Below, one piece after another: positions 580 through 60,049 of a stretch of 64,000 nucleotides of DNA (position 1 is the stretch's first letter; every line of letters starts with the position of its first letter). Position numbers and translations under genes: made by a program. Source of the stretch: Solirubrobacterales bacterium (GTDB lineage: Bacteria > Actinomycetota > Thermoleophilia > Solirubrobacterales > 70-9); NCBI GenBank assembly GCA_035712025.1, contig DASTBO010000138.1, positions 4,935-68,934 on the forward strand, given 5' to 3'. The notes beneath the pieces were generated by a model that searched no databases, was not told the origin of the DNA, and saw nothing but the letters and a program-made list of their open reading frames with translations.

Positions 580-1904
580 GTCGAGGCCCCCAGCGTCTCC
601 GGCGCGCCGCGGACGACGGCGTGCGGATCGAGGACCAGCTCCGGGTCGGCCATCACCCGCTCGAACTCGTCCCTGAACTTGGCGACCATCGCCCCGACCG
701 GCATCGCCATCGAGTCGCCGAGCACGCAGAGGCAGTGGCCGATGATGTTCTGCTGGACCGAGCTGACGATGTCGAGGTCCATCGGCGTCGCCTCGCCGCG
801 CACCATCCGCTCCAGCATCTTCACCGTCCAGTTGGTGCCCTCGCGGCAGGGGACGCACTTGCCGCAGGACTCGTGGTGGTAGAAGCGCGCCGTGCGCAGC
901 GCCAGGTGCGGGATCGAGACCCGGTCGTCGCAGACGATGATCGAGCCCGAGCCGAGCATCGAGCCCGCCTCGGCCATCGCCTCGAAGCTGTAGGGGAGGT
1001 CGAGGCCCTCCTCGGCGGTGAGGACCGGGGAGGAGGAGCCGCCGGGGAAGAAGGCCTTGATCTCGTGCCCGTCCTCGGGGCCGCCGGCGAGGTCGCAGAT
1101 CAGCTCCCGGGTCGGGATCCCCAGCTCGACCTCGTAGTTGCCCGGGCGCTTGACGCCGCCGGAGATCGAGACCACCTTGGTCCCCGGCGACTGCTCGGTG
1201 CCGAAGCCCTTGAACCACTCGGCGCCGTGGCGGACGATGTGGGGGACGTTGGAGAGCGTCTCGACGTTGTTGATCAGCGTCGGCCCGCCGTAGAGGCCCT
1301 GCACCGCGGGGAAGGGCGGCTTCAGGCGCGGGTTGCCGCGCTTGCCCTCCAGCGCGTCGAGCAGGGCGGTCTCCTCGCCGCAGATGTAGGCGCCGGCGCC
1401 GCGGTGGACGACCAGCTCGAGGTCGCGGTGGCAGCCGAGGATGTTCGTGCCGAGGTAGCCCGCCTCGTAGGCCTCGGCGACGGCGGCGTCGAGGATGTCG
1501 GCCTGCTCGTCGTACTCGCCGCGGATGAAGATGAAGGCGTGGCCGGCGTCGGCGGCCAGCGCCGCGATCGCGATCCCCTCGATCAGCTGGTGCGGGTTGC
1601 GCTGCATCAGCTCGCGGTCCTTGAAGGCGCCGGGCTCGGACTCGTCGGCGTTGCAGCAGAGGTACTTGGCCATGTCGCCGCGCGGCAGGAAGGAGGCCTT
1701 TTTGCCCATCGAGAAGCCGGCGCCGCCGCGGCCGCGCAGGCCCGAGTCTTCGAGCTCCTTGAGGACCTCGTCCTGCTCCATCTCCTTGTAGGCGCGCTCC
1801 AGCGTCTCGTAGCCGCCGGCCAGCCGCCGGTAGCCGTCGAGCGTGCGCAGCGCCGGGTCCTCGGCGTGCTCGAGCAGGACCCGCTTCTCGCGCGGGTCAG
1901 CCAT
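576..1904 (-). CDS. nuoF: NADH-quinone oxidoreductase subunit F
   Basis: 442-aa ORF with GLRGRGGAGF NADH/FMN motif and ESCGKCVPCREG 4Fe-4S motif; sits in nuoA-G order. Confidence 0.95.
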   Translation of the reverse strand: MADPREKRVLLEHAEDPALRTLDGYRRLAGGYETLERAYKEMEQDEVLKELEDSGLRGRGGAGFSMGKKASFLPRGDMAKYLCCNADESEPGAFKDRELMQRNPHQLIEGIAIAALAADAGHAFIFIRGEYDEQADILDAAVAEAYEAGYLGTNILGCHRDLELVVHRGAGAYICGEETALLDALEGKRGNPRLKPPFPAVQGLYGGPTLINNVETLSNVPHIVRHGAEWFKGFGTEQSPGTKVVSISGGVKRPGNYEVELGIPTRELICDLAGGPEDGHEIKAFFPGGSSSPVLTAEEGLDLPYSFEAMAEAGSMLGSGSIIVCDDRVSIPHLALRTARFYHHESCGKCVPCREGTNWTVKMLERMVRGEATPMDLDIVSSVQQNIIGHCLCVLGDSMAMPVGAMVAKFRDEFERVMADPELVLDPHAVVRGAPETLGAST

Positions 1905-2598
1905 CGAAGCCGTCCTCCCCTCCGCTGACGGGACGATTACCGCTTACATCAAGCGCTTTTCGTCCCGTCGGCGGTTCGGTGTCGCCGGCCAAGGGGCGCT
2001 TGGCGAGGGATTTCGCCGGGAGGACCTCCTCGCCGGCGCGCAGCTGGCCGATCGCGATCCCCGCCTCGGCCGCCTCCAGCGGCCCGTAGTAGCGCTGGTC
2101 GATCGAGGCCATCGGGGCGATGTCGCAGGCTCCGAGGCACTCGAACCCGGTGACGAAGAAGTTGGCGTCGTCGCCCTCGGCTGCCGCTTCGAAGGCCTCG
2201 AGCAGGCGGTCGCCGCCGCGCATCCAGCAGCTGATGTTGGTGCAGACCTCGATCCGGTGGGTCCCGACCGGCGAGGTGTGCAGCAGGTCGTAGAAGCTCG
2301 CGACGGACTCAAGGTAGGCGGGGGTGACCCGCATCACCGCGGCGGCCTGGCGGATCCCCTCCGGGGTGCACCAGCCGTAGAGCTCCTGCACCGCCCAGAG
2401 CGCCGGGATCGAGGCCGAGCGGCGGTCCGGGTAGCGGCCCATCAGCGTCTCGATCCGCTCCCGCAGCTGCGGCGGGCAGTCGACCTCGTGCAGCTCGGGG
2501 ATCTGCTCCTCGGAGCGGTCGGGGACCCGGCCCTCGCGGACCGCGGGGTCGACTGGGAGGTTCGGGTTGTGGATGCCGGGACCGTCGACGGGGCTCAT
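1897..2598 (-). CDS. nuoE: NADH-quinone oxidoreductase subunit E (with C-terminal extension)
   Basis: Internal ATG at 2598 overlaps the nuoD stop (ATGA). Thioredoxin-like 2Fe-2S motifs CTNISCWMRG..CLGACDIAP. The N-terminal part of the 453-aa track ORF is an Arg/Pro-rich artefact. Confidence 0.9.
   Translation of the reverse strand: MSPVDGPGIHNPNLPVDPAVREGRVPDRSEEQIPELHEVDCPPQLRERIETLMGRYPDRRSASIPALWAVQELYGWCTPEGIRQAAAVMRVTPAYLESVASFYDLLHTSPVGTHRIEVCTNISCWMRGGDRLLEAFEAAAEGDDANFFVTGFECLGACDIAPMASIDQRYYGPLEAAEAGIAIGQLRAGEEVLPAKSLAKRPLAGDTEPPTGRKALDVSGNRPVSGGEDGFDG
1927..1969. repeat. 43-nt palindromic repeat, copy 1 (inside nuoE 3' coding end)
   Basis: GACGGGACGATTACCGCTTACATCAAGCGCTTTTCGTCCCGTC; 34/43 identical to the reverse complement of 33587-33629; shares the 3' flank GGCGG with that copy. 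Confidence 0.8.
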
Positions 2599-9414: not shown

Positions 9415-12400
9415 ATGCGGGCGGCCAGTCATTCGACAAGGGAGATGTCAGCTGTGGCTCGCAATGGAATCGTCCGGCGAGGTATTCGACTCGCGATCCT
9501 GTTCACCCTGATTGCGGTCGTGACCGCCGCAGGTGTATCCGCGGCGCTCGGCGCGAGCGGCGAAAACGCCCCTCGTTCATCGCGCGATGTCCTCGAGCAG
9601 CAGCGGGTTGCCAAGCACAAGCGTGCCGCCAAGCACCAGCGGAAGCGGAAGCATCGAGCGAAGTCCCGCCAGCAGAGTCGAAAGGACGGAGCGAGGGCCC
9701 AAGGCCCGGTCGAGCTGGCCCCCGGGGTGACCGAATCCCCCAACGGCTGGATCCACTATGAGCCGCTTCCGGCGGGACCGGACGTCCAGCTCGAAAAGAC
9801 CGTTCGCTTCGACGGCACCCCGGTCGATGGCGGCGCCGGCTGCAAGATCGAGAAGCCCTCCCAGATGCCGCCCCAGGGCCGGGAACTCTTCCGCGAAGAA
9901 ATCGCCTACAACCCCGATACCTGCGAGGCGGTCTACCTCGAAAGGCTGATCGGCGAGGCCCCCAAGTCCGGCGGTGCGCAGACGCGGGTGGTGCCTGGCA
10001 GCTCATCGGAGGTGGACTACAAGAGCGGCCACAACATGCAGCTGTGGGTCGACCCGATCGGGATCACGATCACCGGCCTCAGCGTCGACTACACCTGGCC
10101 TCTGGACGACGCGCCAGGGGAGCCCGTAGTCGATCCCTACTCCTACAAGTTCGCCCTCGACGGCTGGAGGGCGGGCCTGATCGAAAAGGATCTCATCCCG
10201 GTGTCAAAAGAGCGCCCCTTCGGCGAGGACGAAAGGATGTGGGGATCGGCGAACCCGAACTCGCCCGCAGGCGGCAACCGGGCGACCGCCTATCGCCGCT
10301 TCGAAAACATCGACTTCTACAAAGCGGTGAAAGCGGCAAAAATGGGGTTCGTCTGCCACAGCGTGCCGATGGCGTGGACCGTCTTCGAGCAGGAAGTCGC
10401 GGTCACCGGCTACTACAACGGCCGCATGGGCACCTGGCAGCACAGCGTCAAGTCCGGCCCCTGCACGGACCTCGTCCACAGCCGGGAAAAGGTCGCCTGG
10501 GGCACCAAGAGGGGCAAGTTCCCGAAGGAATTCAAGGACGAGTTCCTCAACAAGATCTGGAACGGGACCCCCTTCAGCAAAATCATCGCCTCTCTCGCCT
10601 CGATGGATCGCATGGCCGTCAACAAAGGGGGGACCTCGCCGGTGCCCTCGGACCTGCTGCCGATCGACATCAACCAGACCTCGGTCACGGTCGACGGATC
10701 GGTCAATCCGCGCGGGAAAAGCACCAACTGGTGGGCCCAGTGCGGCCCGACCGAAGCCTACGGAATGTGGGCGAGCGGGCAGGTGAACATCGGCAGCGGG
10801 GTCATCCCGGTGCCCGTCAGCGTGACGGTGCCCAACCTCCAGCCGAACACCACCTATCACTGCCGCATGGTGACGCTGAACATGAACGGGGAAGCCTCCG
10901 TCGGACCCGACAGTGAATTCACCACGAGCGAAGCGGCGGCACCGAGCGTCGCCACCGCCTACACCACTGACATCACCGATACGAGCGCCAAGATCCTTGG
11001 CTGGCTGAATGGCAATGCTGCCGCCACCAACTTCTATTTCCAGTGGGGCAAGACGACGGCGTACGGCAATAACTCTCCTGCGCCCCCCGGCTGGAGTGCC
11101 AACACTATAGACGAGCCCTTCCTGGCTGGGTATAGCCTTACCGACCTCGAACCTGGAACCACCTACCACTACCGGCTCGTCGCCTCGAATGTCTCCGGCA
11201 CCAACTACGGGGAAGACCAGACCTTCACCACCCGGTCGCTGATACCGAGTGTCACCACCGGACCGGCGGTGGAAATCACCACGAGCGACGCCAAACTGAC
11301 CGGATCGATCAACCCGAACGGACTGGCCACCAGCTACTGGTTCGAATACGGGAAGACCACCGACTATCAGTACAGAGAGCCTTGGCACGCACCTCCCGGT
11401 AATGACATCGGATCCGGGACCAGCATTGTGCAGGTGGGCGCCAAAGTCTGGTCGATCGAAATCGGAGCCACTTATCACTACCGGCTCGTCGCCAGGAACG
11501 CCCATGGGACCACCTACGGAGAAGATAAGACGTTCACCGCGCTGACCTACCCGCCGGGAGCGACGACCTTGCCGGCGATCCAGGTCGGCGAAGCGAAAGC
11601 AAGGCTCAGCGGAGCGGTCTCTCCCAACGGTGCCACCACCTACTACTTCCAATTCGGGAAAACGACCGCCTACGGAACCAACTATCCGCAGGTGCCGGAG
11701 TCGGTCGGCTCGGACCCGAGGCAAGTTCCAGTGTCCTATGAAGTCTTCAACCTCGAACCGGGGGTTACCTATCACTACCGTACTGTCGCCTCGAATTCCT
11801 CCGGCAGCAGCTACGGAAAAGACGAAACGTTCACCACTCTGACGCCGAGTACCCCGCGGATCGAACCGACCACTGCGGGTGAAGTGACCCAGTCGAAGAT
11901 CACCATGGCCTCGAAGGTCGATGTCAAAGGCCTGGCTGGCACCTATTACTTCGAATACGGGAACCTCGAAAAATACGGCTCCAAAACCGAAGAAAAAGCC
12001 GTGCCCGCCGGGTCCGGCTACCAGCAGGTGAGCGCCGCGCTGGAAGGGCTCCCGAACGGCTCGACTATCCATTACCGGGTCGTGGTCACCAACAGCGACC
12101 GGACGGTTCGAGGGACCGATCAGGTGGCGACGACCGGGTGGACCAACGAGCCGAGCGCCACCCCGAAAGGATCCAAATCCGACAAGCTGACGGACGTATC
12201 CTGCCCCAGCGCTGGCAACTGCGTCGCCGTCGGTACCTTCGAATCCTTTTCGTCCACTGATCCGAAGGTATCCGCGGAGCGTTGGGACGGCACGAGCTGG
12301 ACGGCGATCGAACCGCCTCTTCCGGCGGGCACCCTCCTCTCGGAGCTGAGAGGCGTTTCCTGCGTTGCCGTCAACAACTGCATCGCGGTGGGCTTCGCCA

Positions 12401-14793
12401 CCAGCGGTGTCAGTGCCGCCCGCCCTCTGATCATGAAATGGAACGGCTCCACCTGGACCGAAGTCTCCGCCGGGAGCCAGCTTCCGGCCGGTTCTCAGCA
12501 CGTTCTGAACGACATCTCCTGTCCGGCGGCCAATAGCTGCGAGGCGGTCGGCTACAGCATTCCGAGCAGCGGTGCGCTGAAAACGCTGGCCATGCATTGG
12601 GATGGCAGCGTCTGGACCGTGCGCGCCAGCGCCAACCCCAAATGGCCGGGATCCGTGGCCACCAAAGAAGACATGGTCCTGGCTGGCGTCGACTGCGCCA
12701 GCGCGACCTTCTGCAAGGCGGTCGGCAGGATAAGCACGAGTTTCGGAGGCAGGCCGCTGATCGAGCGGCTGAACGGCTCCGAATGGCTCAGCGAGACCAC
12801 CCAACCGCCGAGCAGCAACGTCGATACGGCCCTGAACGACGTCTCGTGTCCCACCACGGCGATGTGCGTTGCGGTCGGCAACGCCAGTACCGCGGCCTCG
12901 GCGCCGTTCCCCTCACCGGAGGCCGCCTTCATCCAGCTCTGGAACGGGAGCCAATGGAGCTTCGACTGGGCTCCCAGCGCCAACGAAACCGGGGCGGCGA
13001 TGGGCCTCGGTGCCGTCTCCTGCTCATCCCCGACGTCCTGCCGGGCCGTTGGCGCCGGAGGGCGGGGGGTGCGCTGGACCGGCAAAGACTGGAGACTGCA
13101 GGCGGCGAAGCTCCCCCTCCTCAGCGCGTCCCCCACTTCGGGGCAATCGGGCGGCATCTCCTGCCCGACCGCGGCGGAGTGCCACTCCGTGGGCTCGTAC
13201 CAGAACACGGCTGGCATAGCGCAGCGTCTGACGCAAGGCTGGTCCGGAAGCAGCACCGTGCCGGGAACGCTCGGCGACGCCGCGACGGTGAACGGCGAAA
13301 CGGGCGCCACCGTCCGTGCGTTCGTCGATCCGGCCGGGGTAGACACCAAGTACTACTTCGAATACGGGCCGACTGAATCCTATGGGACGAAAACGGCCGA
13401 AACCAGCGCCGGTTCTGGAGGCCTCAGCTTCAACTCGGGCGCCCGGATCGCGGTGGCCGTGAACCTGGGCGGCCTGCAGCCGGGGGTGAGGTACCACTAC
13501 CGCGTGGTCGCGACCAACGGCACCTCCACTGCCTACGGCCCCGACACGACCTTCGAAACGCTGAACAAGGTCAACGGGATGCCGTTGACGGAGGAATTCG
13601 ACGGTACGACCAGCCCCATTTCGGACTTCGCGACCAAGTGGGCGCCGCTGCAGTGGGCTGGAGCAGCCCACAAGGGAAACAACACCGCCGGCGGCTACGC
13701 TCCCGTCGACACTGCTCTGAACGGCGCCTACTACATGCCGATGGTCACGGACGGGGGCCTGGGCATCGCCGCCCAGGCAACGATCATGGCGGCTCCGGGC
13801 GTGGGCGGCCGCGTCTCGCTCTGGCTCGACATGGGCAGCCCGGCCACGGCCAAGTCCGGTTACCAGCTGGTCTTCCAGGAAACGAGCCTGGACACCTATA
13901 CCGTCACCCTGAAGAAGTGGCTCAACGGCGTGGAAACGTCGCTGGCCTCTAAAACGGGCTACTACTTTCCCCCCGCCAGCTCGATGTCCCTCGTCGATAT
14001 CGGGGGGGCGGTCTCCGCGTGGGGCAATCTCGACGGCAACTTCGCCAAAATCGTAGGTGCGACCGACAGCGGCTTCTCCGCCGGCAACGCCGGGGTCGAG
14101 GTGTCCGGTTCGAGCGCGGCCCGCGTGACCAGATTCAAGGTGGGGACGCTGTGTCCGGAAGGGCCGAACTTCGATTTCGCTGCGATAGCGATCCCGAAAT
14201 TGGACCCGCTCGACCGCAACGAATCGCCGCTCTCGCTGTCCGGTGCCTGGGGGGCGTTCGGCTGGGCCACGACCGCCGTCAAACCCGGGAAAGTCGTATC
14301 CGGATCCGGCTGGACCTCTGGCGAGACGACGAGCGCGATGGCCGGCGCCTATTGGCAGAAAGCCACGATCGGAGACACCGGCACCGGCGATGCGGTCATC
14401 GTCACCAACAACAAAGCCATCGGCAGCTCGCCCAACTCCATTGGCCTGTGGTTGAACGCGGCCAACCCCGGTTCGGCGACGAGGAACGGCTACCAGTTGC
14501 GGGTGACGGAGGTGAGCACCGGGGTTGACCTCAAGGTCTGGAAGTGGGTGAACAACGTGCCCACTCAGCTGGGGAGCAAACTCCTCACCACGGGCGCCTG
14601 GGTGGTCGGGGCCAAGTTTGCCCTGATCGAGAGAGACGGCACGGTTTCGGCGTGGTGGAGCCCGAACGGAGGCACGTTCTCACGGGCGACCATCGCGTCC
14701 GACACGACCTACAGCTACGGGTATGCCGGAGTCGAAGCCTCCGGCACCACCGCCCTGAAGGACTTCAAGGCGGGCATTCTGCCCCAGTTCTGA
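9415..14793 (+). CDS. giant secreted multidomain protein: signal/TM anchor, unknown N-domain, Fn3-like modules, 7 Cys-pair blades, tandem lectin/jelly-roll-like domains
   Basis: 1792-aa uninterrupted ORF with internally repeated protein motifs. Start is ambiguous: ATG 9415, ATG 9445, or GTG 9454, which lies 9 nt after AAGGGAG. Hydrophobic segment IRLAILFTLIAVVTAAGVSAALG. Confidence 0.85.
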   Translation: MRAASHSTREMSAVARNGIVRRGIRLAILFTLIAVVTAAGVSAALGASGENAPRSSRDVLEQQRVAKHKRAAKHQRKRKHRAKSRQQSRKDGARAQGPVELAPGVTESPNGWIHYEPLPAGPDVQLEKTVRFDGTPVDGGAGCKIEKPSQMPPQGRELFREEIAYNPDTCEAVYLERLIGEAPKSGGAQTRVVPGSSSEVDYKSGHNMQLWVDPIGITITGLSVDYTWPLDDAPGEPVVDPYSYKFALDGWRAGLIEKDLIPVSKERPFGEDERMWGSANPNSPAGGNRATAYRRFENIDFYKAVKAAKMGFVCHSVPMAWTVFEQEVAVTGYYNGRMGTWQHSVKSGPCTDLVHSREKVAWGTKRGKFPKEFKDEFLNKIWNGTPFSKIIASLASMDRMAVNKGGTSPVPSDLLPIDINQTSVTVDGSVNPRGKSTNWWAQCGPTEAYGMWASGQVNIGSGVIPVPVSVTVPNLQPNTTYHCRMVTLNMNGEASVGPDSEFTTSEAAAPSVATAYTTDITDTSAKILGWLNGNAAATNFYFQWGKTTAYGNNSPAPPGWSANTIDEPFLAGYSLTDLEPGTTYHYRLVASNVSGTNYGEDQTFTTRSLIPSVTTGPAVEITTSDAKLTGSINPNGLATSYWFEYGKTTDYQYREPWHAPPGNDIGSGTSIVQVGAKVWSIEIGATYHYRLVARNAHGTTYGEDKTFTALTYPPGATTLPAIQVGEAKARLSGAVSPNGATTYYFQFGKTTAYGTNYPQVPESVGSDPRQVPVSYEVFNLEPGVTYHYRTVASNSSGSSYGKDETFTTLTPSTPRIEPTTAGEVTQSKITMASKVDVKGLAGTYYFEYGNLEKYGSKTEEKAVPAGSGYQQVSAALEGLPNGSTIHYRVVVTNSDRTVRGTDQVATTGWTNEPSATPKGSKSDKLTDVSCPSAGNCVAVGTFESFSSTDPKVSAERWDGTSWTAIEPPLPAGTLLSELRGVSCVAVNNCIAVGFATSGVSAARPLIMKWNGSTWTEVSAGSQLPAGSQHVLNDISCPAANSCEAVGYSIPSSGALKTLAMHWDGSVWTVRASANPKWPGSVATKEDMVLAGVDCASATFCKAVGRISTSFGGRPLIERLNGSEWLSETTQPPSSNVDTALNDVSCPTTAMCVAVGNASTAASAPFPSPEAAFIQLWNGSQWSFDWAPSANETGAAMGLGAVSCSSPTSCRAVGAGGRGVRWTGKDWRLQAAKLPLLSASPTSGQSGGISCPTAAECHSVGSYQNTAGIAQRLTQGWSGSSTVPGTLGDAATVNGETGATVRAFVDPAGVDTKYYFEYGPTESYGTKTAETSAGSGGLSFNSGARIAVAVNLGGLQPGVRYHYRVVATNGTSTAYGPDTTFETLNKVNGMPLTEEFDGTTSPISDFATKWAPLQWAGAAHKGNNTAGGYAPVDTALNGAYYMPMVTDGGLGIAAQATIMAAPGVGGRVSLWLDMGSPATAKSGYQLVFQETSLDTYTVTLKKWLNGVETSLASKTGYYFPPASSMSLVDIGGAVSAWGNLDGNFAKIVGATDSGFSAGNAGVEVSGSSAARVTRFKVGTLCPEGPNFDFAAIAIPKLDPLDRNESPLSLSGAWGAFGWATTAVKPGKVVSGSGWTSGETTSAMAGAYWQKATIGDTGTGDAVIVTNNKAIGSSPNSIGLWLNAANPGSATRNGYQLRVTEVSTGVDLKVWKWVNNVPTQLGSKLLTTGAWVVGAKFALIERDGTVSAWWSPNGGTFSRATIASDTTYSYGYAGVEASGTTALKDFKAGILPQF

Positions 14794-17789: not shown

Positions 17790-18607
17790 GCGAGCAGGCC
17801 GCGGAGGTCCTCGAGCACGAAGTCGGGAGCCGGGTCGGCGGCCGCGGCCTCCTCGCGGCCGGTCGTGCCGCTGAGGACGAGGATCGTCTCCAGCCCGGCG
17901 GCGCGCCCGCCGGCGACGTCGGAGGAGATCCGGTCGCCCACCATCGCCACCCGCCCCTTCGCCTGTTCCTTTTCGTTGCCATGGGCCGAAAAGGAACAGC
18001 GGAGCGCCTCCTGCGCCATCTCGAACAGGTGCCGCTCCGGCTTGCCGGCGATCTCCGCCCGCCGTCCCGAGGCGGTCTCGACCGCCGCCAGCACCGCGCC
18101 GGTGCCGGGCAGCTCGCCGCCGGGGTAGGGCATCGTCGGGTCGCGGCTGGTGGCGAAGAGGGCGGCGCCGCGTTCCAGCGCCCGCTTCGCCGTCAGCAGC
18201 TCCTCGTAGTCGAAGCCGCGGTGGCCGGAGACGACGACCGCCTTCGCCTCCCAGGCCTCTTCCCCGGCGAGCACCCGCGCCCCGGTTGCGGCGACCATCT
18301 CCTTCAGCGCCGGCGCGCCGATCACGAAGGCCCCGCCTCCCTCTCCCGCGGCTTCGCCGGCCAAGCGCGCCGCGACCACCCCGGCGGTGACGATCTGCCC
18401 GGCCTCGACCTCCACCCCCAGCTCGCCCAGCCGCTTCGCGTAGGCCGCCGGAGCCTTGCCGGGATTGTTGGTGACGAAGACGATTCCCTTGCCCGCCTCG
18501 AGCAGCGCCCGCAGCGTCTCCGGCGAGCCGGTAACCGGCTCCCGGCCGATCCAGACGACGCCGTCGAGGTCGACCAGAAGTCCGTCGAAGCGATCCGCGA
18601 GGGCCAC
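17786..18607 (-). CDS. HAD-IIA family hydrolase (NagD-like)
   Basis: 273 aa; LLVDLDGVVW motif I, FVTNN motif II, MVGDRISSD motif IV; GTG start. Confidence 0.8.
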   Translation of the reverse strand: MALADRFDGLLVDLDGVVWIGREPVTGSPETLRALLEAGKGIVFVTNNPGKAPAAYAKRLGELGVEVEAGQIVTAGVVAARLAGEAAGEGGGAFVIGAPALKEMVAATGARVLAGEEAWEAKAVVVSGHRGFDYEELLTAKRALERGAALFATSRDPTMPYPGGELPGTGAVLAAVETASGRRAEIAGKPERHLFEMAQEALRCSFSAHGNEKEQAKGRVAMVGDRISSDVAGGRAAGLETILVLSGTTGREEAAAADPAPDFVLEDLRGLLA

Positions 18608-33586: not shown

Positions 33587-33629
33587 GACGGGCCGAAAAC
33601 CGCTCTGCCTGAGCGGAAATCGTCCCGTC
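33587..33629. repeat. 43-nt palindromic repeat, copy 2 (intergenic, 5 nt downstream of epimerase stop)
   Basis: GACGGGCCGAAAACCGCTCTGCCTGAGCGGAAATCGTCCCGTC; folds as 6 bp + 3 bp + AAA/AAA internal loop + 6 bp + 5-nt loop. Confidence 0.85.
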
Positions 33630-33634
33630 GGCGG

Positions 33635-34567
33635 TCAGATCGAGTCCAGCGTGACCCGCAGGCCCTCGTCGAGGTCCATCTCGGCGCGCCAGCCGAGCTC
33701 GCGCTCGGCGCGGGTGGTGTCGATCGAGATCGCCTGGACCTCGCCGGTGCGGGGCGGCGCGAGCTGGGCCTCGAAGTCGTCGCGGCCGCTGATCCCGCGC
33801 AGGGCCTCGACCAGCTCCAGCACGTTGGTCTCCTTGCCGGTGCCGATGTTGATCGCCCCGGTGGCCGCGGAGTCGCCGGCGGCGAGCGCGGCGGAGACCA
33901 CGTCGCCGACATATATGTAGTCGCGGGTCTGGGTGCCGTCGCCGTAGACCGTCGGCTGACCGCCCTCCTTGATCAGGCCGCAGAAGATCGCGATCACCCC
34001 CGCCTCGCCGAGCGGGTCCTGGCGCGGGCCGTAGACGTTGCCCAGCCGCAGCGAGACCCCCGAGAGCCCGTAGAGGCGCTCGTAGAGGGAGAGGTAGCCC
34101 TCGGCGGCGAACTTGCTCTGGCCGTAGGCGGAGAGCGGCGCGATCGGGGCGTCCTCGGGCAGCGGCAGCTGCTGGCCCTCGCCCTCGCCGTAGATCGCCC
34201 CACCGGTGGAGATCGAGACCACCCGCCCGCACTCCGAGGCGCGCGCCGCCTCGAGCACGTTGGCGGTGCCGCCGACGTTGACGCCGGCGTCGAAGAAGGG
34301 GTCGGCGAGGGACTTGCGGACGTCGATCTGGGCGGCGAGGTGGAAGATCGCCTGCGGCCGCTTCTCGCCGGCCAGGCGGCTCAGCGCCTCGCCGTCGCGG
34401 ATGTCCAGCTCGACCAGCTCGGCGCCGGCGGCGAGGCCCGGCTCGAGGTTGGCCCGGCGGCCGGTGGTGAGGTTGTCGACCACCGTCACCTCGTCGCCGC
34501 GCGCGAGCAGGGCGTCGACCAAGTTCGAGCCGATGAACCCCGCGCCGCCAGTGACGAGACACCTCAT
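33635..34567 (-). CDS. NAD-dependent epimerase/dehydratase (GalE-like)
   Basis: 310 aa; [16 protein letters not shown] catalytic motif. Confidence 0.9.
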
Positions 34568-36964: not shown

Positions 36965-37561
36965 TTGTTCATCTCGCTCGAGGGCGTCGACGGCTCGGGC
37001 AAGAGCACCCAGGCGCGCCTGCTGGTCGAGGCGCTGGGGACCGACACGGTCGCGATCCGCGAGCCGGGGGGGACCGAGGCGGCGGAGCGGATCCGCGAGC
37101 TGCTCGCCGACCCGGGAGTCGCGCTGGAGCCGCTGGCCGAGCTGATGCTCTTCCTCGCCGCCCGGGCCGAGGTCACCGCGCGGGTGATCCGGCCGGCGCT
37201 GGAGGCGGGGCGGCACGTCGTCGCCGACCGCTTCTCGGACTCCAGCATCGCCTACCAGGGCGCCGCCCGCGGCCTCGGCGTCGGCGAGGTGATCGGCCTC
37301 TGCGAGACGGCGACCGACGGCCTCTGGCCCGACCTCACCCTGCTGCTGCGGATCGAGCCCGAGGCCGGCCTCGGGCGCGCGGCGGGCGACGACCGCTTCG
37401 AGCAGGAGGGCCTGACCCTCCAGCAGGAGGTCGCGACCGCCTACGAGGAGATCGCGATCATCGCCTCCGACCGGGTCGTCGTCGTCGACGCGACCGGGAG
37501 CGTCGAGGAGGTTCACGCCCGGGTCATGGAGGCGGTGAATGAGCACCTCGCCGCTGCTTGA
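36965..37561 (+). CDS. tmk: dTMP kinase
   Basis: 198 aa, TTG start; [16 protein letters not shown]-loop. Confidence 0.9.
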
Positions 37562-38672
37562 GGCGACCGAGCACCAGGGCCGGGCGCGGGTGGCGCTGAG
37601 CGCGGCGCTCGCCGAGCCCTCCCACGCCTACCTCTTCCGCGGCCCGCGCGGGTCGGGGAAGCGGGCGGCGGCGCGCTCCTTCGCGGCCGAGATCCTCGCC
37701 GCCGCGGCCGCCGACCCCGAGGACGCGCGGCGGCGGGCGCTGCTCGACCCCTCGCCGCATCCCGACCTCGTCTGGCTGGCGCCGACCGGCGCCCAGCACA
37801 TGGTCGAGGAGGTGCGGGAGCGGGTGATCCGCGCCGCCGCCTACCGGCCCTTCGAAGGCGGCCGGCGGGTGTTCGTCGTCGAGGCGGCCGAGGCGATGCG
37901 CGACGAGAGCCAGAACGCGCTGCTGAAGACGCTGGAGGAGCCACCCGGGTTCGTCCACCTGATCCTGCTCAGCTCCGACCAGGAGGGCCTGCTGGAGACC
38001 GTCGCCTCCCGCTGCCAGCCGATCGATTTCGCCCCCCTTCCCGCGGAGGTGCTCGAACACGAGCTTGCCGACGGGCCGGAAACCGCTCTGTCTGAGCGCA
38101 AATCGGCCCGTCGCGACGGGGAGGTCGCCGCCGCGGCTCGCCTCGCCGCCGGCGACCTCGAGCGGGCGCGGCTGCTGCTGAGCGAGCGGGGGCGCGAGCT
38201 CCGCGCCGAGGCCGAGCGCTGCGTTACCGCCGCCCTCGCCGGGGAGTGCGCGGGCGCTCCCTGGAAGGCGCTCCTCGACGACGCACAGACCGCCGGCGCC
38301 GACGTCGAGGCGGCGGCCCGCGAAGCGCTCGAGGAGGAAGCGAAGGCGGGGATCAAACGCAGCGCCAAGGAGATCGCCGACGGCGCCAAACGCGCCGGTC
38401 GCCGCCGCCGCACCGAGATCCTCACCCTCGCCTACGAGCTCTGCGCGGCCTGGCTGCGCGATCTCGCCGCCGTCGCCGCCGGCGCCGAGGAGGTCGCCTT
38501 CAACCGCGACCGGCTCGAGCAGCTGCGCGCCCAGGCCGAGGGGCTGGATGCGGCCAAGGCCCGCCGCGGCGCCGAGCTCGTGCAGGAGACCCGCCGCGGC
38601 CTCGACCTCAACGTCAGCGAGGAGCTGGCGTTAGAGGCGCTTTTCTTCCGGCTCGAGACGCTGCTGGCCTGA
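37539..38672 (+). CDS. holB: DNA polymerase III delta' subunit
   Basis: 377 aa; HAYLFRGPRGSGKR, ..QNALLKTLEEPP.., SRCQ motif; carries the repeat insertion at codons 178-192. Confidence 0.85.
   Translation: MSTSPLLEATEHQGRARVALSAALAEPSHAYLFRGPRGSGKRAAARSFAAEILAAAAADPEDARRRALLDPSPHPDLVWLAPTGAQHMVEEVRERVIRAAAYRPFEGGRRVFVVEAAEAMRDESQNALLKTLEEPPGFVHLILLSSDQEGLLETVASRCQPIDFAPLPAEVLEHELADGPETALSERKSARRDGEVAAAARLAAGDLERARLLLSERGRELRAEAERCVTAALAGECAGAPWKALLDDAQTAGADVEAAAREALEEEAKAGIKRSAKEIADGAKRAGRRRRTEILTLAYELCAAWLRDLAAVAAGAEEVAFNRDRLEQLRAQAEGLDAAKARRGAELVQETRRGLDLNVSEELALEALFFRLETLLA
38070..38112. repeat. 43-nt palindromic repeat, copy 3 (in-frame inside holB)
   Basis: GACGGGCCGGAAACCGCTCTGTCTGAGCGCAAATCGGCCCGTC; 39/43 identical to 33587-33629 in the same orientation; GACGGG repeated at 38115-38120. 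Confidence 0.85.
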
Positions 38673-46403: not shown

Positions 46404-47171
46404 ATGGCGAAAGATCGGGATGCCACCGCCGATCCCGCCGCCTCCGAGGCGAACCTGACCGTCGAGCAGCTCGCCTACGAGACCGGGATGTCGGTGCGCA
46501 ACATCCGCAACCACCAGTCCCGGGGCCTGCTGCCGCCGCCCGAGGTGCGCTCCCGCGTCGGCTACTACGGCCCCGAACACGTCGCCCGCCTGCGCCTGAT
46601 CCAGGAGATGCAGTCGGAGGGCTTCAAGCTGAGCGCGATCTCCCGCCTGATCGGCGAGCACGGCGCCGACGCCGACCGCTTCGTCGGCCTGCGCCAGGCC
46701 GTCACCGCCCCCTTCGCGACCGAGGCGCCCGAGGTCTACTCGCGCGAGGAACTGGTCGAGAAGTTCGGCGCCGACGACGACAAGCTGCTGGAAAAAGCCC
46801 AGAAGCTCGGCCTCCTGGTCGATCTCGGCGAGGAACGCTTCGAAGCCCCGAGCCCGGCGCTCCTGCGCGCTGCCGAGGCGGTTCTCGGCATGGGCATCGA
46901 GCTCCCCGCCGCCCTTGCCGCGATCGAGAAGCTGGAGCGCAACTCCCAGGCCTCGGCCCGCACCTTCGTCAACCTCTTCGTCGACGAACTCTGGAAGCCC
47001 TTCGACGAAGCCGGCCGCCCCGAGGAGGGCTGGGACGAGCTGATCGAGGCGATCGGTCGCCTCCGCCCGCTCGCCTTCGACGCCCTCAACGCCACCTTCC
47101 GCCTCACCCTGACGACCGAAATCGAAAAAGCCTTCGGCGAAGTCCTCGAACGGCGGCAGAAGAAGAAGTAG
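46404..47171 (+). CDS. MerR-family transcriptional regulator (paralogue of 59243-60049)
   Basis: 255 aa; HTH LTVEQLAYETGMSVRNIRNHQSRGLLPPP..GYYGPEHVARL. Confidence 0.85.
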   Translation: MAKDRDATADPAASEANLTVEQLAYETGMSVRNIRNHQSRGLLPPPEVRSRVGYYGPEHVARLRLIQEMQSEGFKLSAISRLIGEHGADADRFVGLRQAVTAPFATEAPEVYSREELVEKFGADDDKLLEKAQKLGLLVDLGEERFEAPSPALLRAAEAVLGMGIELPAALAAIEKLERNSQASARTFVNLFVDELWKPFDEAGRPEEGWDELIEAIGRLRPLAFDALNATFRLTLTTEIEKAFGEVLERRQKKK

Positions 47172-59246: not shown

Positions 59247-60049
59247 GCAGCCGCAAAGGGCGGAACGCCAAGCCCGACGGCAAGATGACGATCGGGGAGC
59301 TGGCGCGGCGGACGGGAATGACGATCCGCAACATCCGCGCCCACCAGACGCGCGGCTTGCTGCCGCCGCCCGAGGTCCATGGCCGCACCGGCTACTACAA
59401 CGAGGACCACGTCGCCCGGATCGAGCTGACCCGGGAAATGCAGGCCGAGGGCCTCAACCTCGAGGCGATCCGCCGCGTGCTGGAGAGCAGCGAGGGCTCC
59501 TCCCGCGAGATGGTCGACTTCGCCCGCGCGGTGCGCGCCCCCTTCGAGGACGAGACGCCGGAAATCTTCGACGCCGAGGAGCTCGCCGCCGCCTGGGGCG
59601 TCGAGCGGTTCGACCCCAAGCTCCTCGCCCGCACCGAACAGCTCGGCATCCTGCGTCAGCTTCCCGACGGCAAGGTCGAGGTGATCAGCCCCCGCCTGCA
59701 GCGGGCCGGGACGGCGCTGGTCGAGCTCGGCGTCTCGCCCCAGGCGGCGGTCGAGACCGCCGAGCAGCTGCGCCGCTCCTCCGAGAAGGTCTCGCGCACC
59801 TTCGTCGAGCTCTTCGTCCGCGAGATCTGGGAGCCGTTCGACAAGGCCGGCCGGCCGGAGGAGGACTGGCCGAAGGTGCGCGAGGCGCTGGACCGGATGC
59901 GCCCGCTCGCCTCCGACGCGCTGCTGGCGATGTTCCAGATCACGATGGGCGAGTCGACCGAGAAAGCCGGCGAACGAACCCTCCGCGACGCGGCCAAGCC
60001 GGCCGGCAAGCGACGCCGCAAGCGCAGCTCCTCTAGCCGCCGATCGTGA
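59243..60049 (+). CDS. MerR-family transcriptional regulator (paralogue of 46404-47171)
   Basis: 268 aa; ATGA overlap with the SDR stop; MTIGELARRTGMTIRNIRAHQTRGLLPPP..GYYNEDHVARI; basic C-terminal tail. Confidence 0.85.
   Translation: MSSRKGRNAKPDGKMTIGELARRTGMTIRNIRAHQTRGLLPPPEVHGRTGYYNEDHVARIELTREMQAEGLNLEAIRRVLESSEGSSREMVDFARAVRAPFEDETPEIFDAEELAAAWGVERFDPKLLARTEQLGILRQLPDGKVEVISPRLQRAGTALVELGVSPQAAVETAEQLRRSSEKVSRTFVELFVREIWEPFDKAGRPEEDWPKVREALDRMRPLASDALLAMFQITMGESTEKAGERTLRDAAKPAGKRRRKRSSSSRRS

Follow-up and report, generated by a model that had tools for sequence, protein, structure and literature searches.

Palindromic elements of Rickettsia (RPEs) insert in frame in functional ORFs (Ogata et al. 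2000, via PMC10969869 and PMC3733652), and intragenic REPs are also known, often in replication and repair genes such as dnaE, uvrA, and recB (PMC3733652). A palindromic element within holB of the window (the whole 64,000-nucleotide stretch of DNA analyzed here) invites comparison with both. Like RPEs, it is a dispersed palindrome found between genes and in frame in ORFs, including essential and replication genes; its preferred reading frame yields a hydrophilic peptide characteristic of the family, and it inserts at tolerant protein sites. RPE-1 to RPE-10 are ∼100 to 150 bp long, AT-rich, restricted to Rickettsia (Alphaproteobacteria), and without sequence similarity to the element, whereas the element spans 43 to 49 nt in high-GC Actinomycetota, with an outer stem that is conserved and an inner hairpin that varies freely. 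The element behaves like an RPE yet is not an RPE.

GTAG- and CGTC-tagged REPs (PMC3733652) are, like the element, short palindromic repeats; most REPs lie immediately downstream of ORFs, and a fraction of them, as of the element's copies, lies inside genes. No dedicated transposase is known for the CGTC class (PMC3733652), and the element likewise ends in ...CCCGTC. In CGTC-tagged REPs, however, the CGTC (or TGTC or CCTC) tag is unpaired at one end, whereas that of the element pairs with a 5′ GACG; their 8- to 9-bp stems start with A/T pairs and carry 4- to 5-nt loops and a CCA tail (PMC3733652), whereas the element is two-tiered, about twice as long, and without the tail. Actinobacteria are absent from the main text of Di Nocera, De Gregorio, and Rocco 2013 (PMC3733652). 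As with REPs in general, which are short (20- to 40-nt) imperfect palindromes in many dispersed copies, the element is a much-repeated imperfect palindrome, slightly longer at 43 nt (49 nt with its flanks). The GTAG tag of classical REPs, however, occurs in 0 of 74 distinct copies, and classical REPs, which are extragenic by definition, lie chiefly immediately beyond the 3′ ends of ORFs, whereas the element is also intragenic. With the REP/REPIN-RAYT systems (Bertels and Rainey 2011, PMC3116915; Nunvar et al.) it has in common genome-specific populations of short hairpins, long vertical persistence, and a “master” type of its own, but it is not arranged in REP doublets (REPINs), and the DNA examined yielded no RAYT gene. 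MITEs (such as Correia/NEMIS, ERIC, and Chunjie) are, like the element, small noncoding repeats with inverted ends that occur in operons and occasionally form in-frame fusions (PMC10969869); they are 70 to 500 bp long, enclose unrelated sequence between terminal inverted repeats, and have target-site duplications, whereas the element is a single continuous 43- to 49-nt hairpin with no detectable duplication.

Copies in the window and range of the family

The window holds three copies of a 43-nt two-tier palindrome (Table 1). The pattern GACGGGNCGN5CGCTN7AGCGN5CGNCCCGTC, with 3 mismatches allowed, found only these three sites, against 0.00 expected from 100 shuffles. The looser GACGGG-N31-CCCGTC with 2 mismatches was not above chance in the window (11 found, 17 expected), so that the inner part must hold the signal and the loose pattern is unusable for counting. 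Each of the three copies folds into a two-tier hairpin (−30 to −34 kcal/mol; z = −4.7 to −8.4), with values of −31.6 kcal/mol and z = −5.0 for the copy in holB.

Table 1. Coordinates of the palindromic copies and their host or neighboring genes in the window
Feature	Position	Strand	Remarks
holB (DNA polymerase III delta′ subunit), 377 aa	37539..38672	+	ORF; Pfam PF13177 at residues 26-167, E 5e-35
holB palindromic element, 43 nt	38070..38112	+	holB codons 178-192; family pattern 3 matches vs 0 expected
Outer stem of holB element	38070-38079 / 38103-38112	+	From fold
A-rich internal loops of holB element	38080-38083 and 38099-38102	+	
Inner stem of holB element	38084-38088 / 38094-38098	+	From fold
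Loop of holB element	38089-38093	+	
Extended 49-nt unit in holB	38067..38115	+	Flanking triplets left gcc, right gcg; partial pairing only
Downstream GACGGG (codons D193 G194)	38115..38120	+	Missing in every other element-bearing orthologue
Intergenic copy	33587..33629	+	Nearest relative of holB copy: 39/43 overall, 21/23 in center
galE-like gene	33635..34567	-	Adjoins intergenic copy
Third copy	1927..1969	-	Translated in another frame, ..PPTGRKALDVSGNRPVS.., in NuoE C-terminal tail
nuoE	1897..2598	-	Putative start at MSPVDG..

A sequence-only reading of this DNA had quoted the holB copy letter for letter correctly and had placed its start at codon 178, read in frame, which the ORF translation confirms (37539 + 177 × 3 = 38070). 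The holB frame across the element gives DGPETALSERKSAR(R), in context ..LEHELADGPETALSERKSARRDGEVAAAARL.., and 10 of the 15 element codons end in G or C, compared with a GC3 of 0.93 for the whole of holB; this low GC3 gives the segment a foreign look. The same-orientation match to the intergenic copy (39 of 43 positions) was reproduced; that copy is 2 to 5 nt past the galE-like stop codon and upstream of the gene that follows on the minus strand. Kinship with the third copy also stands, but the best match is in the opposite orientation (34 of 43 after reverse complementation), the two being 80% complementary over 49 nt. Two of the three window copies, those in holB and nuoE, are read through in their host ORFs. 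A gathering-threshold Rfam scan of the window returned two tRNAs only, permissive Rfam scans covering the two hairpin regions yielded no match that approached its cutoff (int-alpA scored highest, with 18.9 bits, where 35.8 are required), and a search for a phage or virus origin gave zero IMG/VR viral contig matches.

One representative genome per species (596 Gb) was scanned with a pattern that demanded CGCT/AGCG inner stems and therefore biases the family picture. The scan gave 55 loci, ∼51 of them in Solirubrobacterales or unclassified actinobacterial metagenome-assembled genomes (MAGs) with several per genome; these ∼50 additional copies bear out the expectation that further copies exist. 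The 3.8-Mb chromosome OZ241364.1 contains at least 14 strict-pattern copies, and two other MAGs carry ∼10 each. Four Pseudonocardiales matches were set aside, as they look like unrelated GC-rich hairpins. On these data, the family is confined to Solirubrobacterales. Data beyond the scan come from ∼1.4 Mb of DNA adjoining the known copies and the holB loci, where per-genome counts are minimum values.

Members share the outer stem GA[CT]GGGNCG...CGNCCC[GA]TC, usually lengthened by gYY/RRc, with A/T-rich internal positions and an inner hairpin that is variable yet self-complementary. The GC-rich outer stem measures 10 to 13 bp and is followed by an internal loop, an inner stem of 4 to 6 bp, and a loop of 5 to 7 nt. 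Among 74 distinct copies, flanking triplets (gcc..ggc, gtt..aac, or gtc..gac) extend the stem in most members, columns 1 to 3 pair and covary with columns 47 to 49, and columns 4 to 7 pair with 43 to 46, three of these four column pairs being intact in all 74 sequences. Paired cells make up 90.5% of the total, against 23 to 47% when the partner column is slid. Both-sided changes affect 10 of 18 pairs and amount to 133 cells (47 expected), a value reached in 0 of 500 shuffles.

The family divides into genome-specific subfamilies, in which flank triplets, column 17, and the loop vary by genome, and copies of one genome are more alike than orthologous copies across genomes. The central 23 nt agree at 20 to 23 positions within a genome but at 10 to 13 between the window and the relatives compared, whose flanking DNA is 86 to 91% identical to that of the window; this contrast draws on four genomes, effectively two lineages (the window versus L056/L067/L103).

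The holB site among relatives

The insertion is not unique to the window's genome: varied forms of the element occupy the same site in 31 to 32 of 81 related holB loci (∼39%), and the others have an ordinary linker, in agreement with the expectation that many HolB orthologues would lack the 15-residue segment. Gains and losses were mapped on a bootstrapped tree of topA-tmk-holB DNA, which replaced a HolB-only neighbor-joining tree of too poor a resolution. Occupied sites are patchily distributed across this supported tree. Outgroup loci are empty, with a linker G.GSP[DE][DE], and sister pairs of opposite state have 87 to 100% bootstrap support. The window itself clusters at 92 to 96% with two empty loci, L071 and L088, whose ordinary linkers also occur in further empty genomes, and with L066, which carries another inner type. 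Where empty loci are nested within occupied groups, they have normal linkers and no deletion scars.

The right junction, CCCRTC-RRC-C[TG]GAGGAG, is identical in all element-bearing loci; the two major clades differ by one codon in their left junction, and the copies in L101 and L132 have a T-rich orientation. Inner stems vary and still pair (CGCTC/GAGCG, CCCCT/AGGGG, CGGTCC/GGACCG, GTCCC/GGGAC, CCGGT/ACCGG, and CGTC/GACG), the CCCCT/AGGGG type prevailing in one well-supported clade. Hairpin potential is kept in nearly all of the 25 holB copies examined, whose inner sequences are very different (z = −2 to −7). The outer stem covaries from GAC..CGT to GAT..CAT despite the resulting change of R to H, and the flank covaries from GCC..GGC to GTC..GAC despite a change of A to V. 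Mismatches or decay were seen in L126, L135, and P0066, the last with an internal deletion.

The holB copy had also been described as an insertion of exactly 45 nt between direct repeats of GACGGG. A second GACGGG is indeed present downstream of the element, but other occupied orthologues read ..CCCGTC GGC CTG AGG AGG.. or ..CCCGTC GCG ATG AGG AG.. (L078, RRDEE) at this point. Because it is absent in other occupied orthologues, the GAC GGG of the window is a point variant of GAT GAG confined to this genome. It was ruled out as a target-site duplication against 30 further occupied holB loci, and empty and filled galE-downstream sites revealed no consistent duplication either. In relatives, the galE-downstream site also hosts two further hairpin families (types B and C), neither of which is present in the window. 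Nor does the idea hold that removing 15 codons would restore a seamless LADGEV, since LAGEGDPDEV, LAAEGASPDEA, or LAAAGLDAGPDEI stands at this place in orthologues without the element. The element lies within a hypervariable linker of 5 to 11 residues or takes the place of part of it.

Protein context in HolB and other host genes

The host gene has the features of delta′: an AAA+ clamp-loader fold, an SRC motif (..ASRCQ.., invariant), a DNA_pol3_delta2 domain, and a three-domain architecture. An AlphaFold model of HolB (pLDDT 82.6) best matches E. coli delta′ chains (TM 0.62 to 0.63), and a PDB profile search matches gamma/tau and delta′. Residues 180 to 188 are the sole segment of the model with a pLDDT of <50. 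The element segment connects helix 169-178 to helix 190-202, which are helices one and two of the lid (domain II), and aligns with the E. coli gamma/tau stretch ..HQLEHILNEEHIAHEPRALQLLARAAEGSLRDA... A surface loop between domains II and III had been predicted; the surface loop is retained, but the model places it inside lid domain II. On this model, the element is predicted to encode a floppy surface loop. The holB copy would thus amount to 14 to 15 extra hydrophilic residues in a disordered loop between the first two delta′ lid helices, and the clamp loader would tolerate the element because the inserted residues sit in that loop.

At least 8 of ∼57 copies lie inside genes, and most of the copies in loci L001 to L055 are not within a coding-like ORF. 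Host genes are unrelated, and the element occurs in several frames and runs either with or against transcription; most intragenic copies use the frame of holB, with a peptide DGP[KE]..S[AS]R[RQ]. In-frame copies flanked on each side or enclosed by Pfam domains occur in genes for a PabB/TrpE-like protein (L022) and an FAD-oxidase/Fe-S protein (glcD-like; L031), within the TP_methylase domain of CobA-HemD (L037), and within the Mur_ligase_M domain of MurE (L024). In a hydantoinase (hyuA-like; L053) and GalT (L054), Pfam domains flank the in-frame copy on one side only. The Pfam 2Fe-2S_thioredx domain of NuoE ends ∼28 residues ahead of the element, and the nuoE stop (1897 to 1899) overlaps the nuoF start at 1904; NuoE orthologues end either in ..KRGLAGD[SAG] (207 aa) or, in many cases, in the same element-encoded tail as in the window, PTG[RL][NK]x7NRP[VIT]. 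These copies in intact genes support the sequence-only reading in its main claim, that a dispersed palindromic repeat resides in an ORF and leaves it intact, in the manner of RPEs and intragenic REPs. Indels of 15 residues in the conserved markers HolB, NuoE, and MurE affect alignments, gene calling, and MAG annotation.

Origin and persistence of the element

We consider it highly probable that these copies represent a dispersed REP/RPE-like family of Solirubrobacterales, a mobile hairpin tolerated in the holB loop at a site that has been repeatedly reworked. The element is most likely small and non-autonomous, moving as a DNA hairpin with help in trans. We infer mobility itself, and with it the transposition mechanism and the mode of copy homogenization: the evidence for movement is presence and absence among species rather than a movement event seen directly, and this pattern could also stem from allele exchange or loss. 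A tblastn search of 1.37 Mb with approximate IS608 TnpA and E. coli RAYT queries gave only a spurious antisense match in a ribonucleotide reductase gene, and no transposase or other mobilizing gene was found in the DNA around known copies and holB loci. Two genes that lie between paired copies are not transposases; one is acetolactate-decarboxylase-like (L026), and the other encodes a putative endonuclease-domain protein (L027), which, by eye, we take to be DUF559-like.

Under this account, copies would survive where harm is small: just past stop codons, at gene junctions, and in in-frame surface loops. The HolB peptide would be a by-product, and the DNA (or RNA) palindrome would be what persists, its arms changing together even at the cost of HolB residues. 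The holB site would be an old landing place that has been reworked repeatedly, so as to appear empty, occupied, doubled, or decayed across relatives. The resemblance of the holB copy to other copies of its own genome points to re-templating (gene conversion) or to re-insertion from a genome-specific master. A bolder version, which we hold only tentatively and think rather unlikely, is a still-active hairpin class of Actinomycetota with an unknown mobilizing enzyme, its copies re-templated in each genome by concerted evolution or site-specific re-insertion, such that a loop of an essential protein is rewritten by palindrome maintenance and not by protein selection. Were it true, variable linkers of HolB and of other proteins in this lineage would in part be decayed insertions. 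A known behavior appears in a new bacterial group, with unusual persistence at one site. Essential genes with in-frame palindromic repeats have been described chiefly in Rickettsia, apart from scattered REP examples in Proteobacteria; such repeats now extend to uncultured high-GC soil Actinomycetota, making the phenomenon broader than reduced intracellular genomes. Dozens of related genomes in which one codon position is empty, filled, doubled, or decayed form a natural experiment that could inform how hairpins spread, how their symmetry is kept up, and how new protein loops arise from selfish DNA.

The palindrome might instead be a selected cis-acting structure kept for function in holB, whether as an mRNA stabilizer or processing site, a translational pause between the folding units of AAA+ and lid, or a nucleoid or topoisomerase protein site as proposed for REPs. 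Selection would fit the long retention in holB, the maintained hairpin potential, and the compensatory changes, some of which alter HolB residues, and intergenic copies directly after stop codons recall REPs thought to be RNA elements (PMC3733652). We nevertheless find this improbable, given sister genomes of opposite state, the ∼60% of relatives without the element, host genes that are unrelated and entered in several frames and both orientations, the mismatched or decaying copies in L126, L135, and P0066, and the lack of an Rfam match. Less probable again, by our estimate, is one old insertion into holB that has since only been inherited vertically, altered by point mutation, and now and then lost, without recurrent insertion or re-templating and with the within-genome similarity a lineage-sorting coincidence. 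It sits poorly with the grouping of the window with the empty L071 and L088 and the differently typed L066, with the normal linkers of nested empty loci in place of scars, with the one-codon shift of the left junction between clades, and with the T-rich orientation in L101/L132. The center moreover differs from that of the relatives compared at about half of its 23 nt even though the flanks are ∼90% identical, while the holB and intergenic copies of the window agree at 21 of 23; the single right junction of all occupied loci and the dominance of CCCCT/AGGGG in one well-supported clade are what speak for it. The window DNA derives from a MAG, and misassembly, or a fortuitous palindrome in a low-complexity linker, could in principle mimic an insertion. 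We give this almost no credence: zero chance matches are expected in the window, more than 30 assemblies, made independently in different projects, have this element at one and the same codon, and the ORF is unbroken and has conserved domains before and after the segment.

The element in holB

The product of holB is the delta' clamp-loader subunit of DNA polymerase III. Residues 26 to 167 match Pfam DNA_pol3_delta2 (E 5e-35), a profile of HolB homologues matched the E. coli gamma/tau and delta' structures in the PDB, and the best superpositions of the AlphaFold model (mean pLDDT 82.6) are with E. coli delta' chains (TM 0.62 to 0.63). Translation runs through the 43-nt palindromic element (..LEHELADGPETALSERKSARRDGEVAAAARL..). 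GC3 of the 15 element codons is 10/15, compared with the holB-wide value in the table, which fits DNA that was not originally coding.

The intergenic copy is identical to the holB copy at 39/43 positions in the same orientation, and the nuoE copy aligns best when reverse-complemented (matching 34/43 positions of the intergenic copy and 32/43 of the one in holB). Exactly three window sites match a pattern containing the inner stem with up to three mismatches, where none is expected, and each has a predicted two-tier hairpin fold at about -30 to -34 kcal/mol (z -4.7 to -8.4). The ORF, identities, pattern count, and folds thus bear out the sequence-only reading that a 43-mer begins at holB codon 178 and is related to two other copies. 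A fourth copy, now decayed, may lie at a further site whose left arm matches well (GATGGGCCGAAAAG-like) and whose right arm matches poorly; the site comes from the three-mismatch matches, a class no commoner than in a reversed-sequence control.

Two other repeats were also observed. A ∼300-nt periodic repeat, present in about three copies, encodes a recurring protein module (..YHYRLVA.N..G...G.D.TFTT.. and ..Y.FEYG..), which suggests a large repeat-domain protein, and two segments ∼12.8 kb apart with 71 to 74% identity over 150 to 206 nt are probably paralogous genes.

Coordinates of element copies and other features in the window and in loci (L) retrieved by the genome scan
Feature	Location	Strand	Remarks
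Element copy in nuoE	1927-1969	-	NuoE C-terminal tail, translated ..PPTGRKALDVSGNRPVS..
Element copy, intergenic	33587-33629
Element copy in holB	38070-38112	+	starts at codon 178 (38070)
holB ORF	37539..38672	+	377 aa, GC3 0.93; sole long coding-like ORF spanning the holB copy
Possible decayed copy	17980-18020		CATGGGCCGAAAAGGAACAGCGGAGCGCCTCCTGCGCCATC
∼300-nt periodic repeat	11144-11848, 11309-13373		repeat families D3, D15
Paired segments	46444-47107, 59274-59943		repeat families D2, D5
Membrane-protein copy, L008	7223-7265		RRDENRLHGAEIVPS
Membrane-protein copy, L039	1422-1464		RRDENRLRGAEIGPS
Element-bracketed gene, L027	6409-7412
Element-bracketed gene, L026	7011-7928
Tandem repeat, L001	4336-4390		..CGGCCCGTCGGCCCGTCG..

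The holB site in relatives

We compared the holB site in the best 120 HolB homologues (81 to 88% identity) and in 80 metagenomic holB loci (65 to 88%). The element was present at the same site in 77/120 homologues and in 31 to 32 of 81 loci, the window included. Genomes lacking the repeat carry ordinary linkers there (AGEGDPDE, AAEGASPDE, AAAGLDAGPDE, or ASERPEAGAEE) rather than the same 15 residues, which leaves the proposed insertion unrefuted, and the linker that the element occupies is hypervariable. The right junction is identical in all occupied loci, the left junction is shifted by one codon between two major clades, and two loci (L101 and L132) hold the copy in the T-rich orientation.

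These comparisons revise the insertion proposed earlier, a 45-nt segment bracketed by a GACGGG direct repeat. In other loci, the downstream codons read CGG CCT GAG GAG or CGC GAT GAG GAG; GACGGG occurs downstream only in the window and is therefore a point variant, not a target-site duplication. Nor would deletion restore a seamless ..LADGEV.., since empty orthologues read otherwise and the linker is hypervariable. The segment had also been expected between domains II and III. The AlphaFold model instead places it between helices 169-178 and 190-202, the initial pair of helices in the lid domain (domain II), where residues 180 to 188 form the sole stretch with pLDDT below 50; it aligns with a gamma/tau loop (..ILNEEHIAHEPRA..).

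The conserved feature of the holB copies is the palindrome, not the peptide. Inner stems vary by genome, each self-complementary: CGCTC/GAGCG in the window, CCCCT/AGGGG in many loci, and CGGTCC/GGACCG, GTCCC/GGGAC, CCGGT/ACCGG, or CGTC/GACG elsewhere. Paired changes alter the protein, GAC..CGT to GAT..CAT in the outer stem replacing Arg with His and GCC..GGC to GTC..GAC in the flank replacing Ala with Val (L103). One sub-lineage has 27 extra nt after the element (homologues P0020, P0021, P0030, P0067, P0091, P0107, and P0111; loci L065, L069, L077, L082, L108, and L110), which resemble a second copy with an internal deletion (..TCGGCCCATCGGCCCACTGAAGTCGACGGATCGGCCCGTC.., peptide ..SAHRPTEVDGSARRE..). 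In P0095 and P0119, the loop of the first copy seems to contain another; P0066 has lost an internal stretch (DGAK-PSRRP), and the copies in L126 and L135 are decayed relics.

A dispersed family with in-frame copies in genes

A scan of one genome per prokaryotic species with the pattern GACGGG-N8-CGCT-N7-AGCG-N8-CCCGTC yielded 55 loci. Almost all belong to Solirubrobacterales or to unclassified actinobacterial MAGs, with several per genome and 14 in the 3.8-Mb chromosome OZ241364.1; NCBI likewise annotates the window protein as that of a Solirubrobacterales MAG. The further copies anticipated beyond the window therefore exist. Four Pseudonocardiales matches have GC-only hairpins and are seemingly unrelated. 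The family consensus is gYY-GACGGGCCGAAAA[C/G]CGCT-CTATATC-AGCG[G/C]TTTTCGGCCCGTC-RRc, with the center in both orientations; the flank triplet and inner stem vary by genome, each with its own flavor. Among 74 distinct copies, 90.5% of hairpin cells were paired, compared with 23 to 47% when the 3' partner was slid, and two-sided changes affected 10/18 hairpin pairs (133 cells versus 47 expected, a value reached by 0/500 shuffles). No Rfam family matched the element, and a search of viral contigs found no copies.

Copies of the family habitually reside within genes. In the window, ORFs contain two of the three copies, and the remaining one adjoins a galE-like gene at its stop codon. The nuoE copy lies past the 2Fe-2S domain and directly ahead of the overlapping nuoF start; NuoE orthologues either end at ..KRGLAGD[SAG] (207 aa) or bear the element-encoded tail. 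The fetched loci hold in-frame copies in a PabB/TrpE-like synthase (between the Anth_synt_I_N and Chorismate_bind domains), an FAD-oxidase/Fe-S protein, CobA-HemD (within TP_methylase), MurE (within Mur_ligase_M), a hydantoinase, and GalT, most of them in the holB frame, DGP[KE]..S[AS]R[RQ]. A membrane protein with no Pfam match, occupied at the same site in two genomes (L008 and L039) and read there in a third frame, is a further conserved intragenic occupancy.

Patchy occupancy, relationships, and proposed origin

On a tree of topA-tmk-holB DNA (3,770 ungapped columns, linker masked, 100 bootstraps), occupied genomes mix with empty ones, and the outgroups are empty. Sister pairs of opposite state have 87 to 100% support (L083/L065, L100/L078, L122/L126, L059/L057, and L058/L056), and the cluster that holds the window (92 to 96%) contains L071 and L088, both empty, and L066, whose copy has a different inner type.

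The intergenic site downstream of galE, which precedes the holB site by about 4.5 kb, is empty in ∼15 loci and carries the 43-nt element in six (the window, L056, L067, L071, L100, and L103). About seven others (L064, L066, L072, L082, L092, L121, and L134) hold a different ∼75-nt palindrome (..GGGGTGACCCTCGGCGGACAACAGCGGGGAGGGTCTGGCGAGGGTCACCCC..) that appears to represent a second family of hairpin repeats, and seven (L057, L059, L099, L109, L114, L118, and L120) hold a third hairpin (..GCCGCCCCGGACGCGAAGCGGAGGAGGCGGC..); neither has a copy in the window. Because unrelated hairpins fill the same site in relatives, the spot just past the galE stop is a hairpin hot spot.

Within one genome, the intergenic and holB copies agree at 20 to 23 of 23 central nucleotides; between the window and the relatives compared, only 10 to 13 of 23 agree, in surrounding DNA that is 86 to 91% identical. 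Such likeness is the pattern that re-templating among copies, or re-insertion of a genome-specific master, would leave, and since it comes from four genomes, effectively two lineages, we regard it as a strong lead rather than as proof.

Rickettsia palindromic elements (RPEs) are an established case of palindromic repeats lying in frame within genes (summarized in PMC10969869). GTAG- and CGTC-tagged REPs, the latter without a dedicated transposase, were cataloged by Di Nocera et al. (2013; PMC3733652), who pointed out that REPs inside genes are often in replication and repair genes (dnaE, uvrA, and recB) and whose main text leaves Actinobacteria unmentioned. The element shares a CGTC end with CGTC-tagged REPs, but its CGTC is paired with GACG, its two-tiered hairpin is about twice the length of theirs, and the element lacks their A/T-start stems and CCA tail. 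Unlike REP/REPIN-RAYT systems, it has no GTAG tag, REPIN doublet form, or demonstrated RAYT, and unlike MITEs, it has no MITE-type target duplication. The interpretation in the sequence-only reading is partly supported: its RPE/REP-like, in-frame part holds, and its 45-nt segment with direct repeat, seamless deletion, and domain placement do not. The element behaves like RPEs and REPs and belongs to no described family; it is a known kind of repeat in a phylum where it was previously undescribed. Of potential interest are the recurrent or persistent occupation of one codon in an essential gene and the genome-specific homogeneity of copies.

The explanation with the most support places the element among REP/RPE-kind repeats, as a small non-autonomous hairpin that would persist at harmless places such as the disordered delta' loop. 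That the hairpin is instead a selected cis-acting element is possible but disfavored by its patchy distribution, its mixed orientations and frames, and the decay of some copies. The data show directly that the copies form a family, that the holB reading frame is intact, that the segment lies in a loop, that the hairpin arms covary, that relatives differ in presence or absence, and that copies within a genome are alike. Under the preferred explanation of a non-autonomous repeat, we infer that the element moves at all, as well as the route of copy homogenization; movement may pass through a hairpin in single-stranded form and depend on an enzyme, HUH-type or other, acting in trans. No transposase was found in 1.37 Mb of loci, where tblastn with Y1 transposase queries produced a single antisense match that is spurious.

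In L027 and L026, a single gene is bracketed by two identical element copies. The L027 gene is one that we take, by eye, to encode a putative endonuclease-domain protein (DUF559-like), and the L026 gene is acetolactate-decarboxylase-like; the two are unrelated, and no transposase lies between the paired copies. In L001, the last 8 nt of the element are tandemly repeated after its 3' end, a small duplication at the foot of the hairpin.
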